Shown here: piece after piece, positions 4,559-15,656 of the stretch | How positions within the stretch are numbered: position 1 is the stretch's first letter | Layout: each line of letters starts with the position of its first letter | Origin: a virus | Lineage: Duplodnaviria > Caudoviricetes | Length of the DNA stretch: 64,000 nt | IMG/VR virus record: IMGVR_UViG_3300025387_000016 | Span: 5,544 to 69,543 of that record | Strand: one strand, 5' to 3' | The notes under the pieces: model-generated | Seen by the model: only the letters and a program-made list of their open reading frames with translations | What the model was told of the DNA's origin: nothing | Databases searched by the model: none | Program-made: the position numbers and the translations under genes

Positions 4559-5835
4559 TAGATAATCAGCAAGTCTCCCCAGCCACGCTTGCCGTAGGCC
4601 GAGCCAGCACCAAAAGTCAACATACCGGCAGGGGAGCTCTTGCCCGTTTGGTCAACGAACCACTTTGAGCCACCATCTTGAGCGGGGCATTGGAAGCAGG
4701 TGCGACCAGAGCCTTCGGACGCAATGTAGTGGTGAAAGTGACCGCTAACCACAATATCTGCTTCAGAAGCCTTTGTGCGCCCCCTAATCTGCCCCAGAAT
4801 CCACGTTTCTATCTTGGCAATAGTTCCGCCCCCATTACCCTTGCCGAACTGATGTCCGTGCGCCAAGGTGATGATAACGCCACATACGTTTAGGGTCATA
4901 GTGAGGTCTTCCTCAATCAAACCCTCAAACTGCGGGAACGAGACATTTCCAAATCTCGCCGGGTTTGCGGCACAGATTTCAGCAACGCCCTCAAACACGG
5001 ACAAGTCCATATTGTCGGTCCACGTTGTATAGGCCTTGCCGTTGAGTCGGTTTTCGCCGTGATTACCGGGAACGGCCACCACAACGAGTGGGATTTCGGG
5101 GAAGTTTTCTACGCAGAGTTCGACGTAGCGAAAAATAAGGCGACGAGCGACTTTCTGCTGTTCTCGTGAATCCAAATCAACGGAAAACGTCTGCATCGCA
5201 TAGTGATTCGAGCAGTTTTCAACTAAATCGCCCATTCCGCAGCAATAAATGACCGATGGGCCACGACCAATCTTGATGAGTTCCTTGATTCGCTCGATAG
5301 AGGCATCTTGAGAAGCCATAATGCGAGCGATAGTTGCTTCGGTTCCGCCGCCTTCTGATTTGCCTAGTTGCCAATCAGCAAAAAACGCCATAAACGCACG
5401 TTCTTCGATAGAGACTTCTCGCTTGGCTGTCTTTGCGGGCTTCTTCATTATCTCTTTACAGAGAGCCTCGATATCTGCCCTATCGCCCTTTTCGGCGCGT
5501 CGGCGGATTTGCGCTCGGTAGTAGCGCATCTTGGCGATTTCACCACCGCCGATATTGGAGTCCCACGCTCGGATATGGACAGAGCCGTCAATAATTTCGG
5601 TGAGGTTTGGGTCAAGACCCCAATCCTGAATCACCATATCCCAAAGGGCTTGGTCGGGTTCTGCGTCGGTAGCGGGGCTGTCTATGTAGCCCTTTTCGCC
5701 GTCCCAACGAATCTCTCGCTCGTATCCCTTGGCAATAGAATCTCTCCGCACTTGGGCGCGCTTCTCTGCTTCGATTTCAGCACTCTCAAAGGTCATTATA
5801 CGAATCCTTGTATTTGGTTTTCGCAGGGCAACCAC
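4558..5835 (-). CDS. Calcineurin-like metallophosphoesterase (actinophage type)
   Basis: Motifs ADWQLG, GDLVE, GNHGE, HGHQ and GHFHH in the canonical order. Confidence 0.85.
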   Translation of the reverse strand: MVALRKPNTRIRIMTFESAEIEAEKRAQVRRDSIAKGYEREIRWDGEKGYIDSPATDAEPDQALWDMVIQDWGLDPNLTEIIDGSVHIRAWDSNIGGGEIAKMRYYRAQIRRRAEKGDRADIEALCKEIMKKPAKTAKREVSIEERAFMAFFADWQLGKSEGGGTEATIARIMASQDASIERIKELIKIGRGPSVIYCCGMGDLVENCSNHYAMQTFSVDLDSREQQKVARRLIFRYVELCVENFPEIPLVVVAVPGNHGENRLNGKAYTTWTDNMDLSVFEGVAEICAANPARFGNVSFPQFEGLIEEDLTMTLNVCGVIITLAHGHQFGKGNGGGTIAKIETWILGQIRGRTKASEADIVVSGHFHHYIASEGSGRTCFQCPAQDGGSKWFVDQTGKSSPAGMLTFGAGSAYGKRGWGDLLII

Positions 5836-11037: not shown

Positions 11038-11442
11038 TTACACCCCACCTGTGTATTTGAGCAGGTTTTTTAGTGGAGTTTCGGGGGTCGGGGCATACTC
11101 AACCTCGGTTCTGTGTTCGCAATCAGCACAGACGATTTGGATAAGGCTATTCGCAATAGTGCGAACTCGCCAGTCGTGGAAGCACGTTTCCCTATCGCCG
11201 TTATTTACAACCCTAATTTGGTTGTGAACGGGGTCACGGACGATTCGTTTCTGCCGTTCAAGGCGGCTGATTATGCCGTGAATAGTAGAACTACTACTAA
11301 TCCCTAATGCTTTGGCGATAGAGCGATAGCCCGGTGGGAATCCGTATCGTTCCCAATACCAATTTATGTATTTGAGAACCTTTACGTCGCGCTCTCGTTT
11401 CTCTACGGCGGTGAGATACGGCTTATAGGGGCGATATTCCAT
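11038..11442 (-). CDS. LexA-type winged-HTH DNA-binding protein with C-terminal Zn ribbon (no peptidase domain)
   Basis: VLKYI..Y...YGFPP.YRSIAKALGISSSSTIHGIISRLE...I.RDP matches the LexA DBD; C-terminal CFHDW...CADC. Confidence 0.75.
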   Translation of the reverse strand: MEYRPYKPYLTAVEKRERDVKVLKYINWYWERYGFPPGYRSIAKALGISSSSTIHGIISRLERQKRIVRDPVHNQIRVVNNGDRETCFHDWRVRTIANSLIQIVCADCEHRTEVEYAPTPETPLKNLLKYTGGV

Positions 11443-12172: not shown

Positions 12173-12505
12173 CTAATCTGCTTCATTCGCACTCCTTTGG
12201 TGAACGCCTACGATTCCGGCGATAATCCAAGTGACCACAGGAACGGCAACGGCGTTGCCCATTTGCTTATAGCGATTGGTATCGGAGTTGATGCCCGTCC
12301 ACCCACGAGGAAAGCCCTGTAGAGACTCGCACTCTTCTGGCGTTATTCGGCGCACCCTCGTTTCAGCACTACGGACAGGAACGTTTCCACCGCCCGTTCC
12401 CATAAAAGCAAGGAGAGTCGGGGATACGGCTTCGTGGACTCGCATTTCACCAGTACGGCGATTTGCTTCATAGACCGTGTTGTTATCTAGCGTGGACACT
12501 GACAA
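12173..12505 (-). CDS. C5 DNA methyltransferase C-terminal module 3 (TRD + motifs IX/X)
   Basis: RRITPEECESLQGFPRGWT...YKQMGNAVAVPVV. Confidence 0.8.
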   Translation of the reverse strand: MSVSTLDNNTVYEANRRTGEMRVHEAVSPTLLAFMGTGGGNVPVRSAETRVRRITPEECESLQGFPRGWTGINSDTNRYKQMGNAVAVPVVTWIIAGIVGVHQRSANEAD

Positions 12506-12932
12506 TCCCCTCGATTACCCAATCAACAACTGGAACTGCAACTGCGTTCCCCATTTGCTTATAGCGATAGCGGTCTAGTTGGCCGTTGTCTGTCCATCCA
12601 ATCGGAAACCCTTGTAGTTGTTCGCACTCTTCGGGCATTAGGCGACGGATTTGTGGCTTGGTGGCAAACACTTGGGCGTGGTGACTCTGCACACTCGGTT
12701 GGTGTGCTGAAACCGTGCCAGAAACCTCTATGGGCGTGGCACTAAAGGTATTTGCCTTGGCGTCCTCACGGATTGAGTAGGCGAGTGCCTCTTTTTCGGC
12801 GGCTTGGATAGACATAGAAAGAACTTTCAGTACATAGGCATCTTGCGTTGTTCCCGTTGCCGCGTCCCCCATACCAGCGAGCAAAGTCGGCATAATAGGT
12901 TCTTCGGATAGGGAGAGACTTACTCTAGCCAC
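12483..12932 (-). CDS. C5 DNA methyltransferase C-terminal module 2 (TRD + motifs IX/X)
   Basis: RRLMPEECEQLQGFPIGWT...YKQMGNAVAVPVV. Confidence 0.8.
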   Translation of the reverse strand: MARVSLSLSEEPIMPTLLAGMGDAATGTTQDAYVLKVLSMSIQAAEKEALAYSIREDAKANTFSATPIEVSGTVSAHQPSVQSHHAQVFATKPQIRRLMPEECEQLQGFPIGWTDNGQLDRYRYKQMGNAVAVPVVDWVIEGIVSVHAR

Positions 12933-13743
12933 GATTGTTTATAGACACAATTCCGGCGATTACCCACTCCACGACTGGTATAGCAACGGCGTTGCCCATT
13001 TGCTTATAGCGGTGGACATTGGATTGTTCCTTGCCATCAGCACGAAGAAGTGTGTGGTCGTCTGGGAAGCCTTGAAGCCGCTCGCACTCAGTAGGGGTCA
13101 AACGACGAACGACCGATTCCATCCGAACGGCGGCGTAGCCTTGACCGGGCTTTCCGCCACCACCCGTAAGAGCGTTCGTCACGTCAACCTCTCGGATTTC
13201 GGCGCGCTGATTCTCGACCATCGCTTTTGGGGTGAGGATGTTGTGTCGGTTGTTATCCACAGTTCTTGCCACCGCATCCGTTCGGTACACACGATATGGC
13301 TGTGGCATTTCGGGCCACGGCGTTAGCGAACCCACTTCGGAGTTGTTCTCTATTTCAGCACCAGCGCTTTCTTCTATAAGGATGAGATGGCGATTGTTGT
13401 CAACCGTTCTCGTTGGGGTATCCGTGCGATAGACCATATTTGCTTGACCCATTTCGGACCACGGGGTCAAGTTGCCCATTGGGGTTGCCTCTACATCGTA
13501 AAACGTTGCGAGTTGGTTATCGCCCATATGAGCTCGGATGGTTGGGGCTATTTCAGCAGGGTCGTGACCCTCGATTCGACTCAACGCACCCGGCTCAAAG
13601 ACTTGAGGGTTCTGGGGAACCATAACCGAAGCACCGCCCGTAGCCGTAAGGGTGTACGAGGGGTCGCCCGGATTTCCGATGCCCAAACCGTTCTGCTTCT
13701 GCTCTAGGCCGCGCCCGTCTTGGATTGGAATTGGCTCACTCAT
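12925..13743 (-). CDS. C5 DNA methyltransferase C-terminal module 1 (multiple TRD-like units + motifs IX/X)
   Basis: RRLTPTECERLQGFPDDHT...YKQMGNAVAIPVV. Start at ATG 13743 overlaps the upstream stop (ATGAGTGA). Confidence 0.82.
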   Translation of the reverse strand: MSEPIPIQDGRGLEQKQNGLGIGNPGDPSYTLTATGGASVMVPQNPQVFEPGALSRIEGHDPAEIAPTIRAHMGDNQLATFYDVEATPMGNLTPWSEMGQANMVYRTDTPTRTVDNNRHLILIEESAGAEIENNSEVGSLTPWPEMPQPYRVYRTDAVARTVDNNRHNILTPKAMVENQRAEIREVDVTNALTGGGGKPGQGYAAVRMESVVRRLTPTECERLQGFPDDHTLLRADGKEQSNVHRYKQMGNAVAIPVVEWVIAGIVSINNRG

Positions 13744-14887
13744 CTTCGCCCGTTTCAGCAAAGGTCGTGTGGACAGAAACCATTGGTATTCCAAGGCCGA
13801 TGAAGTCACTCCCACTCGCCGTGACGGTCGGGGCAATACCCTCTCCGTACATTGAGTTGACTCGACGTTCTACGACTACGTGCGCCTCGGCTCGGTTGGA
13901 GTCGGTGGCAGTTAGCGTTGCGAATGGGGGCGAATCAGCATACCCATTGAAGTTCCCACCCGAATAAGCCGATTGCTCGACAACAATAAAGTCCTCTTGG
14001 CTCATAGATGCCCGAAGCGTGTTTAGCCCCTCGGCGTATTGGGCGAAGTCACTCTTAGAAAAAGGGATGGTCGAGTTCTCGTCAGCGACGGCCTCTCCCT
14101 CCTCTAACGGCTCAAACGCATACGGCGTGTTATTGCTACCCGTTGAGGCGAGCAAAGTGGTTGATGTTTCAGCAACTCGCAAGTCGCCGCGCTGGTTCTG
14201 CGTGACTACTGCGGGTCGGGCGTGTAGCCCTCGGCTTGCTTCTCCAAGGCTGTCTGTAGTGCTGTCGGCAAGGTCTTCCCACGCCGCTTCGCTCTCGCCA
14301 GAATCCCCGCACACGCTTTCGCGCTCAAATAATACTTCTGTGGCACTTCGCCAGTCTCCAGCACGTCGGCCAACGATGAAGACGCGCCGCCTGCGCTGGG
14401 GAACTCCGAAGTATTGAGCATCCAACACCCGCCAACTGACGCCGTACCCGAGTTCGACCAACGTGGCGACAACGCTTCCCATATCTGCCCCTCCGTTACT
14501 GGAAAGAAGACCGGGGACGTTTTCGAGGACGAACCACTCTGGCTCGACTTCTTTGATGATGCGCGCAACTTCGTAGAAGAGGCCGCTTCTCTTTCCAGCC
14601 AGCCCAGCACGTCTTCCGGCAACGGAAAGGTCTTGGCAGGGGAATCCTCCGACAAGGATTCCGTTTCGTGGAACAAAGCCTGCTGAAATAAGTTGCTCAC
14701 CTGTTACCTCCGTAACATCGTTGAATAGTTGAGTGTTTGGGAACTGCTTTGCCAAAATCGCTTGCGCGTGTTTGTCAATCTCTACGGCGGCTACGACTTT
14801 CACCCCATTGCGTTCGAGAGCAAGGTCGAAACCCCCCACGCCCGCAAAGAGGGAAACCGCAGTCATCTGTTGGGTTTCATTAGCCAT
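13736..14887 (-). CDS. C5 cytosine DNA methyltransferase catalytic subunit (motifs I-VIII, lacks IX/X)
   Basis: SLFAGVGG (I), EID (II), GGFPCQDLS (IV), ENVPG (VI), QRRRRVFIVG (VIII). Start at ATG 14887. Confidence 0.9.
   Translation of the reverse strand: MANETQQMTAVSLFAGVGGFDLALERNGVKVVAAVEIDKHAQAILAKQFPNTQLFNDVTEVTGEQLISAGFVPRNGILVGGFPCQDLSVAGRRAGLAGKRSGLFYEVARIIKEVEPEWFVLENVPGLLSSNGGADMGSVVATLVELGYGVSWRVLDAQYFGVPQRRRRVFIVGRRAGDWRSATEVLFERESVCGDSGESEAAWEDLADSTTDSLGEASRGLHARPAVVTQNQRGDLRVAETSTTLLASTGSNNTPYAFEPLEEGEAVADENSTIPFSKSDFAQYAEGLNTLRASMSQEDFIVVEQSAYSGGNFNGYADSPPFATLTATDSNRAEAHVVVERRVNSMYGEGIAPTVTASGSDFIGLGIPMVSVHTTFAETGEDE
14206..14700 (-). CDS. Nested alternative-frame ORF resembling the M.EcoHK31I beta polypeptide
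   Basis: Lies wholly inside the MTase gene in another frame; carries SSLADVLETGEVPQKYYLSAKACAGILARAKRRGKTLPTALQTAL, the conserved overlapping-frame motif of EcoHK31I-type MTases. Confidence 0.7.
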   Translation of the reverse strand: MSNLFQQALFHETESLSEDSPAKTFPLPEDVLGWLEREAASSTKLRASSKKSSQSGSSSKTSPVFFPVTEGQIWEALSPRWSNSGTASVGGCWMLNTSEFPSAGGASSSLADVLETGEVPQKYYLSAKACAGILARAKRRGKTLPTALQTALEKQAEGYTPDPQ

Positions 14888-14932
14888 AGTTGAAACTATA
14901 ACTGATTCAGCAACGTTTGTCAGGTCAATCGC

Positions 14933-14968
14933 AAACAAAAAACCCCACCCGGGATTGGGTGGGATTCT
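14933..14968 (-). terminator. Intrinsic terminator downstream of the Rpf-like gene
   Basis: Minus strand ATCCCACCC-AATCCC-GGGTGGGGT followed by TTTTTGTTT. Confidence 0.75.
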
Positions 14969-15032: not shown

Positions 15033-15656
15033 TCATACGCACCCGTCGCCGTTCCACGGCGAGAACCCGTCTCGTTTCCAATACCAAATCGCAACGGCAC
15101 TCTGCTGTTCGGGCGTTGCGTAGTTGGCACTAGACACGGGGATACCGAGAGCCTTCGCACCGAACTGCCAGATATAGGGCAAGAACTGATATAGGCCTTC
15201 TGCGCCCGAATACTGATTTGTGTCGTTGGGGTGATTTCGGCTTTCGGCGTATCGGATACAGGCAAACGTCACTTGGTCGGCCATAGGGAGTGACCTAACC
15301 GGGTCGCTTGCCGATGGCTCGTATGCCGTTGGGTCGGTCTGCCACGTCCACCAAAGAGAGTTGCCGATGTCATATGAATCAGCACTAAGGGTGTGGGAGT
15401 GGGCCACAAGATGTGGGGCGATAGGTTGCGGCGCGACAACGTGAGCCGTGACAACGTGGGGCTTTACAACGGCCTTTGGCGCAGGCGTGGGGAACCACGC
15501 CCCCTTGTTGGGGATTAGACCAGTATTGCTTCGATAGGCAATAGTGGTGATATGTGTAGGGGTCGCACTCTTGACGGCGTGAGCGTGTGGGTGGCTTGTT
15601 GCCGTGCTTACGCCTAGAGCGAGAACTAAAGCGACGCCTCTAATAGCGCCTCTCAC
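15033..15656 (-). CDS. Secreted lytic transglycosylase (Rpf/SLT-like lysozyme domain)
   Basis: N-terminal signal peptide; CIRYAES (catalytic Glu), GLYQF..W, ATPEQQ.AVA, GFSPW..C. Confidence 0.8.
   Translation of the reverse strand: MRGAIRGVALVLALGVSTATSHPHAHAVKSATPTHITTIAYRSNTGLIPNKGAWFPTPAPKAVVKPHVVTAHVVAPQPIAPHLVAHSHTLSADSYDIGNSLWWTWQTDPTAYEPSASDPVRSLPMADQVTFACIRYAESRNHPNDTNQYSGAEGLYQFLPYIWQFGAKALGIPVSSANYATPEQQSAVAIWYWKRDGFSPWNGDGCV

Follow-up and report, generated by a model that had tools for sequence, protein, structure and literature searches.

How can a DNA cytosine-5 (C5) methyltransferase be built from one catalytic chain that lacks the closing part of the enzyme and three consecutive genes that each supply it? 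This question is raised by a locus of the IMG/VR virus record IMGVR_UViG_3300025387_000016 (Duplodnaviria; Caudoviricetes), at positions 12173-14887 of the window, i.e., the whole stretch of 64,000 nucleotides (nt) analysed here (positions 5,544 to 69,543 of the record). Here, we provide comparative evidence that the locus, which consists of a catalytic gene (N) and the cassettes A, B, and C, has a gene structure that is conserved in related phages, is under purifying selection, shares its variable modules with other loci, and belongs to a group in which whole cassettes and single modules are gained and lost. We consider it likely that the locus encodes a phage C5 DNA methyltransferase that is split and multispecific and whose specificity subunits can be exchanged. 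A single enzyme core would probably work with several partners, mark many sequences, and evade host restriction; the assembly of the chains and the anti-restriction role are what the sequences would predict.

The minus-strand open reading frame (ORF) of N (13736-14887; 383 amino acids, aa) carries C5-methyltransferase motifs I-VIII only, with motifs IX and X absent. It matches positions 1-165 of the 324 positions of PF00145 (E 1.6e-56) and positions 2-163 of TIGR00675, and its motifs I (FxGxG type; 14831-14848), IV (PCQ; 14633-14641), VI (ENV; 14516-14524), and VIII (QRRRR; 14384-14398) are those of the large domain of a C5 DNA methyltransferase. To our knowledge, every C5 methyltransferase needs motifs IX and X to close its catalytic domain. 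These motifs, located by QGFP and GNAV, occur once in each of the three cassettes, which, like all genes, motifs, and modules of the locus, are on the same strand as N. Cassette A (272 aa; 12925-13743) starts with the ATG at 13743 and comprises about five modules resembling target-recognition domains (TRD-like modules; 13126-13731), followed by motifs IX-X (12955-13113). Cassette B (149 aa from a GTG; 12483-12932) has two such modules (12663-12899) ahead of motifs IX-X (12510-12650), and cassette C (12173-12499) has one (12374-12475) ahead of motifs IX-X (12218-12358). The start of cassette C is most likely the GTG at 12499 (108 aa) rather than the TTG at 12505, because the corresponding ORF of a relative (L017, see below) opens with an ATG at the matching residues. 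All three cassettes match only the C-terminal end of PF00145 (positions ~226/264-322; E 1e-11 to 2e-13), and a profile search of the full 69.5-kb record retrieved one N-type and three C-type matches and nothing further. The initial annotation, made from the letters and their ORFs, had described a catalytic ORF with motifs I-VIII but no IX/X and three overlapping ORFs with different variable regions that each end in IX/X; the N match that stops at position 165 and the three C-terminal-only matches bear out both descriptions. It had also placed the junctions out of frame. Indeed, all three junctions are +1 frame shifts in which the downstream start overlaps the upstream stop, with ATGAGTGA as the overlap between N and A, GTGGCTAG between A and B, and a GTG 17 nt ahead of the TAA between B and C.

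Is the division into an N and a C chain itself peculiar to this phage? Relatives of the N chain were gathered from viral contigs and their three forward frames were scanned with an IX/X profile, which gave 54 sequences of <90% identity. An N ORF and a separate C ORF were present in 46 of the 54, whereas seven were fused and one had no C part within the fetched stretch. In the split relatives, the C start codon and the N stop are usually no more than a few tens of bases apart, and the C frame is offset from that of N by +1 in 35, by +2 in nine, and by 0 in two cases. As in M.AquI, motifs I-VIII and IX-X are on separate chains; the ORFs have their own starts and shifted frames, and the split point lies in the variable region, between TRD-like modules. 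The two-chain form is the norm in this clade, and because the split is the family norm, only the multiplicity of cassettes is unusual, i.e., the array of alternative C-terminal subunits. That the arrangement was not recognised as described in the initial annotation thus holds for the array, on which literature searches found no paper and turned up only the classical two-chain enzymes, but not for the split. The PHROGs database already contains families of stand-alone N and C pieces. Among the deposited phage genomes in INPHARED, no record had more than one place that matched cassette C, and a search for the exact DNA pattern of two motif-X sites 250-280 nt apart, a pattern too strict to gauge prevalence, matched only the contig of one close relative (L016). 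Two mycobacteriophages illustrate other states of the gene. In Mycobacterium phage Dove (L002, 2992-4110), the N and C methylase ORFs are in one frame with only a stop codon between them, and the annotated genes are 21 nt apart. In Schatzie (L003, 3004-4888), an HNH endonuclease gene is located within the methylase region, whose coding extent the depositors were unable to define.

The fused members provide natural evidence that the N and C parts belong to one enzyme. In the fused relative L083, module types that split relatives distribute over an N and a C ORF occur in one frame. AlphaFold modelled the catalytic domain (residues 1-180) and the IX/X region (340-391) of L083 with confidence but left the variable region unmodelled, and the best Foldseek match of the model is M.HhaI over ~170 columns. 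These fused proteins also bear on the proposal that the cassettes have a role independent of N, in which they would, for instance, bind DNA, act as regulators, or partner or poison a methyltransferase of the host. Such a role is suggested by L203 (3705-5653) and L207 (8-657) which, like L188, have a small additional cassette with one module and IX/X directly behind a gene for a complete, fused C5 methyltransferase; an additional closing subunit can therefore accompany an enzyme that is closed already. However, N and C are joined in one chain in the fused relatives, the IX/X residues of the cassettes are conserved, and in every record examined the cassettes directly follow an N gene that lacks IX/X, which makes independent action of the cassettes unlikely.

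The initial annotation had suggested that cassette number and order be compared across related phages, and had named relaxed selection on some cassettes and assembly errors as ways in which it could be wrong. The comparison revealed a stable order and arrays of three, four, and five cassettes. The N-A-B-C layout recurs in L016 (IMG 3300025410; 95% nt identity over N and A, 89% over B and C), in L017 and L132 (IMG 3300020731; N 79% identical at the aa level), and in L134 (Ga0007809), and the order A-B-C is kept in relatives with N-protein identities of 79% and 96% to the window. Four C ORFs were found in L133 and in an ENA contig that also encodes the closest relative of a nested ORF described below; the latter contig has PF00145 C-ORFs of 270, 127, 141, and 169 aa. 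A second lineage, represented by three IMG/VR contigs (L114-L116; phmmer E 6e-52 to the N chain of the window), has N followed by five cassettes (~275, 85, 88, 92, and 160 aa), each with its own ATG and overlaps of ATGA, TGATG, or ATGTCTGA. As in the window record, a single N accompanies these sets: the 75-kb record of one relative has one N and three C, and the 72-kb record of the L114-L116 lineage one N and five C. The breaks could be thought to be assembly or sequencing errors in a single multi-TRD gene, as the source is a metagenome assembly. Yet the same ORF structure is repeated at 62-96% identity in independent samples (IMG 3300025410, 3300020731, Ga0208380, Ga0007809, and the ENA assembly), and three sets of IX/X are impossible in a single gene; we regard the probability of such errors as negligible.

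Could the array instead be a relic of tandem duplication, in which N functions with a single cassette and the remaining copies are superfluous or in decay? The motif-X repeats described below exist, and the IX/X cores of A, B, and C are close together in a phylogenetic tree, which suggests duplication within the lineage. Within this tree, A groups with A, B with B, and C with C across the window, L016, and L017, so that the triplication predates the divergence of these three phages. All three ORFs have remained intact in the window, L016, L017, L133, and L134, and the arrays of four and five are intact as well, whereas the variable regions of A, B, and C are unrelated to one another. Ratios of nonsynonymous to synonymous substitution rates (dN/dS; Nei-Gojobori estimates at dS of 0.2-1.9) against L016 and L017, respectively, were 0.17 and 0.10 for cassette A, 0.13 and 0.06 for B, and 0.11 and 0.15 for C. 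Against these two relatives there was no relaxed selection in A, B, or C; with every cassette under purifying selection (0.05-0.17 overall, at dS up to 1.9), a decaying array is very improbable.

A further question is whether the overlaps join chains rather than separate them. Programmed frameshifting at the overlaps could attach cassettes to N or to each other and yield fusions or alternative C-termini, and it would be in line with the uniform +1 shifts at the window junctions and with a slippery CCCTTTT within the N gene of L017 and L133. We find this quite unlikely, as each cassette has its own ATG or GTG at the overlap, the N-to-C offsets differ among relatives as given above, the L114 array has classic ATGA/TGATG coupling, and an N-A-B-C fusion would hold three sets of IX/X.

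The slippery site deserves separate mention. At positions 5715-5730 of L017 and at the same site of L133 (window equivalent ~14060-14075), the N gene is one T short at CCCTTTT, which is a canonical -1 slippery heptamer (C_CCT_TTT) and is present in two independent assemblies. Beyond it, the TRD-bearing tail of N is intact in the -1 frame, with a dN/dS of 0.15 against the window. The site may represent a programmed -1 shift that yields short and long N chains; no strong structure was predicted downstream of it (z = -1.6).

How cassettes enter and leave such arrays is indicated by the DNA that they share. The core that the initial annotation had noticed in all cassettes is the 17-mer CCCATTTGCTTATAGCG, which occurs exactly three times (at 12258, 12550, and 12995; 0 expected from 100 shuffles). 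It lies inside a 77-nt direct repeat of 73-78% identity that codes for motif X, with copies in cassette C (12210-12286), cassette B (12502-12578; 73% identical to the first copy), and cassette A (12947-13023; 78% identical to the first). The idea that these repeats allow cassette shuffling is strengthened by L133, a 125-kb contig from a different sample. It is 99% identical to L017 on both sides of a fourth cassette that is inserted between A and B, and at each edge of the insertion L133 can be aligned with one and the same 72-nt motif-X segment of L017. Gain and loss of cassettes via the conserved motif-X repeat is thereby directly supported. A shufflon or inversion switch was considered and rejected, as the repeats are direct and no recombinase gene was noticed among the neighbouring genes scanned.

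Turnover also extends to the units within the cassettes. The variable regions consist of about 12 short units of ~25-45 aa, mostly of the T-L/T-V type. The initial annotation had assigned one TRD region to each cassette; the variable region does differ from cassette to cassette, but it comprises about five, two, and one modules in A, B, and C, and about four more are located in the tail of N (residues ~226-372; 13772-14212), which is not followed by IX/X. The last three modules of the N tail are common to four other loci, and the N tail has a dN/dS of 0.15 against the tail ORF of L017. Module 1 of A is present in 14 other loci, module 2 of B in 25, and the module of C in 45, where they sit at other positions or in other combinations within single C ORFs. 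L016 lacks module 1 of B through a clean 135-nt deletion, and L017 has extra modules in A and C. These patterns suggest that the modules behave as units, and it may be inferred that they are independent of one another and confer several specificities. Two of the modules in A (residues ~91-171; 13231-13474) are adjacent and similar, each of ~33 aa and ending in D-N-N-R-H, and constitute an internal tandem duplication that was found in no other lineage of the sample.

We propose the following model for the split, multispecific methyltransferase. The N chain would bind S-adenosylmethionine and catalyse methyl transfer through motifs I-VIII and would contribute a few TRD-like modules, whereas each of A, B, and C would supply IX/X behind its own set of modules. 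N would pair with one C chain at a time, as the alpha chain of M.AquI does with its beta chain, so that a single catalytic chain could give rise to three enzyme species with a large variety of short target sequences. Methylation of these sequences could then protect the phage DNA from several host restriction systems. The genes would be translated as one operon via the start/stop overlaps, cassettes would join or leave the array by recombination in the repeat coding for motif X, and single modules would be gained or lost inside cassettes.

Several points weigh against this model. One N chain must serve three partners, and their putative binding to N is deduced from sequence comparison. Upon inspection by eye, no Shine-Dalgarno (SD) motif was seen ahead of the starts of A and B, so that expression rests on assumed translational coupling. 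The N gene is broken by a frameshift in L017 and L133, so that recoding must be either tolerated or required in part of the system. In the AlphaFold model of L083, confidence in the variable regions is very low (predicted local distance difference test below 35), and because these regions were not modelled, the modules are defined only by their sequence pattern and their sharing between loci; no module is tied to a known specificity. Finally, the record is estimated to be ~56% complete, and more methylase parts could lie outside of it.

A further element of the locus is an ORF of 164 codons (14206-14700, minus strand) nested in the +1 frame of the N gene, which starts with a GTG after GGAGG and contains a conserved block at residues 110-152 (14245-14373). 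The nested ORF is conserved, with signs of selection in its own frame. Its terminal block had tblastn matches in 139 phage records and was located in the +1 frame of an annotated methylase gene in every case examined, namely in phages of Mycobacterium, Roseobacter, Caulobacter, Vibrio, Cronobacter, and Ruminococcus. In 54 of 55 relatives, where the nested ORF has a length of about 160 codons, the +1 frame stays open over no fewer than 96 codons upstream of motif VIII and ~60 codons downstream of it, as compared to a median of 8 and 22 codons, respectively, for the +2 frame. In 43 of the 55, the distance from the first start codon of the +1 ORF to motif VIII is 95-102 codons, and an SD-like motif precedes this start codon in 36 of the 55 (8% at random positions). 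Across codons 191-210 of N, identity is 0.66-0.73 in the +1 frame versus 0.27-0.32 in the main frame, and synonymous diversity is 0.08-0.17 versus ~0.6 at the N-terminus. Pairwise dS is 2-8-fold lower inside the overlap, and at codons 179-228 dN exceeds dS in the main frame (0.38 versus 0.24), whereas dN/dS in the +1 frame is 0.21 over roughly the same stretch. We consider the nested ORF a strong candidate for an overlapping gene that is widespread among phages.

For the predicted product of the nested ORF, AlphaFold was confident only at residues ~120-160, i.e., the last ~45, which form two helices. There was no match in Pfam or NCBIfam, and phmmer and profile searches found none among PDB sequences. 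In PHROGs the only match was phrog_16143, labelled 'DNA methyltransferase', and in the ESM Atlas only viral hypothetical clusters were hit. The conserved block may resemble the segment that follows motif VIII, in frame, in Dcm-type enzymes. With no PF00145 match and no IX-like sequence, the nested ORF does not encode a beta chain of the M.EcoHK31I type, since it lacks motif IX; its product could serve as an additional, third chain, bind DNA, or have a regulatory function. In addition, three predicted proteins (P0019, P0033, and P0050) follow the main frame through motifs I-V and switch to the frame of the nested ORF before motif VI, and one cluster of frame-switched proteins has 24 members from 6 contigs; these could be natural frame-switched variants or recurrent indels.

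It is intriguing to propose, though tentatively and at somewhat less than even probability, an enzyme with three kinds of chain: the catalytic chain, the +1-frame protein that is conserved across phages of very different hosts, and plug-in specificity subunits, the array of which would expand and contract through recombination at the motif-X repeat. If so, C5 methyltransferases would gain a division of labour like that of Type I systems, with a dozen or more target modules per catalytic core.

Regarding the surroundings of the locus, consensus scans of the minus strand placed a promoter-like site (CTGACA-17-TATAGT; 14895-14923) just upstream of the N ORF and a terminator-like hairpin with a T-run (14941-14963) upstream of that site; such calls are bare pattern matches and were no more numerous than in shuffled sequence. 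The region 14895-14963 is likely the start of the methylase operon, and the same scan found no terminator-like site on the coding strand inside the methylase block. Downstream of the block and co-directional with it, a 134-aa protein (11038-11442, minus strand) has a LexA-type DNA-binding domain (E 1e-8) and a possible zinc finger, and the ENA relative has a LexA-type neighbour, too. Just upstream of the operon, a 207-aa protein (15033-15656, minus strand) has a weak transglycosylase-like match to PF06737 (E 1e-3, below the Pfam cut-off), and the ENA relative encodes a PF06737 gene in the equivalent position. We take PF06737 to be a domain of resuscitation-promoting factors, which would hint at an actinobacterial host.

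How does the locus relate to known systems? C5 methyltransferases that naturally consist of two chains are rare textbook cases (M.AquI, M.EcoHK31I), and multispecific ones are known mainly from a few Bacillus phages. The enzymes of the latter, M.SPRI, M.Phi3TI, M.Rho11sI, and M.H2I, combine short, position-independent target modules with one catalytic core and have an anti-restriction role. The present locus resembles them in being phage-borne and in having several short modules, here defined by sequence pattern, per catalytic core; however, they are single polypeptides with one IX/X, whereas the modules here are distributed over four chains, three of which have their own IX/X. Cluster J mycobacteriophages share with the window an N chain that is 62% identical and adjacent N and C genes (Dove gp107 and gp108, both annotated 'DNA methyltransferase'), but have a single C gene. 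M.AquI of Agmenellum quadruplicatum is an active two-chain C5 methyltransferase split in the variable region; its large chain holds motifs I-VIII together with some of the variable region, and its small chain the rest and motifs IX-X, encoded by separate genes (PMC3404938). Unlike the phage locus, M.AquI has one beta chain and one specificity and is part of a restriction-modification system; here, three and elsewhere four to five alternative small chains with different variable regions are encoded in phages, and no nuclease gene was recognised nearby. In M.EcoHK31I, the beta chain is encoded in another frame inside the alpha gene and supplies motif IX (PMC2836561, PMC3404938). The N gene is similar in that it also contains an ORF on its own strand in a different frame, but this nested ORF has neither IX/X nor a match to Pfam or a solved structure, and motif IX is located in the cassettes. 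Type I restriction-modification systems with several alternative HsdS genes offer an analogy only, with one catalytic component, exchangeable specificity subunits, and repeat-mediated exchange; they differ in enzyme family and chemistry, and here the repeats are not inverted and no recombinase gene was noticed among the neighbouring genes scanned.

The split form is typical of this phage clade, and some lineages extend it to arrays of three to five alternative closing subunits that turn over between near-identical genomes. If the proposed function holds true, this would provide phages with a simple route to gain or lose protection against restriction enzymes, and the chains could serve as natural parts for engineering split or retargetable cytosine methyltransferases. 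By analogy, the array would combine two known kinds of enzyme, adding to a split of the M.AquI type the multispecificity of the Bacillus phage methyltransferases.

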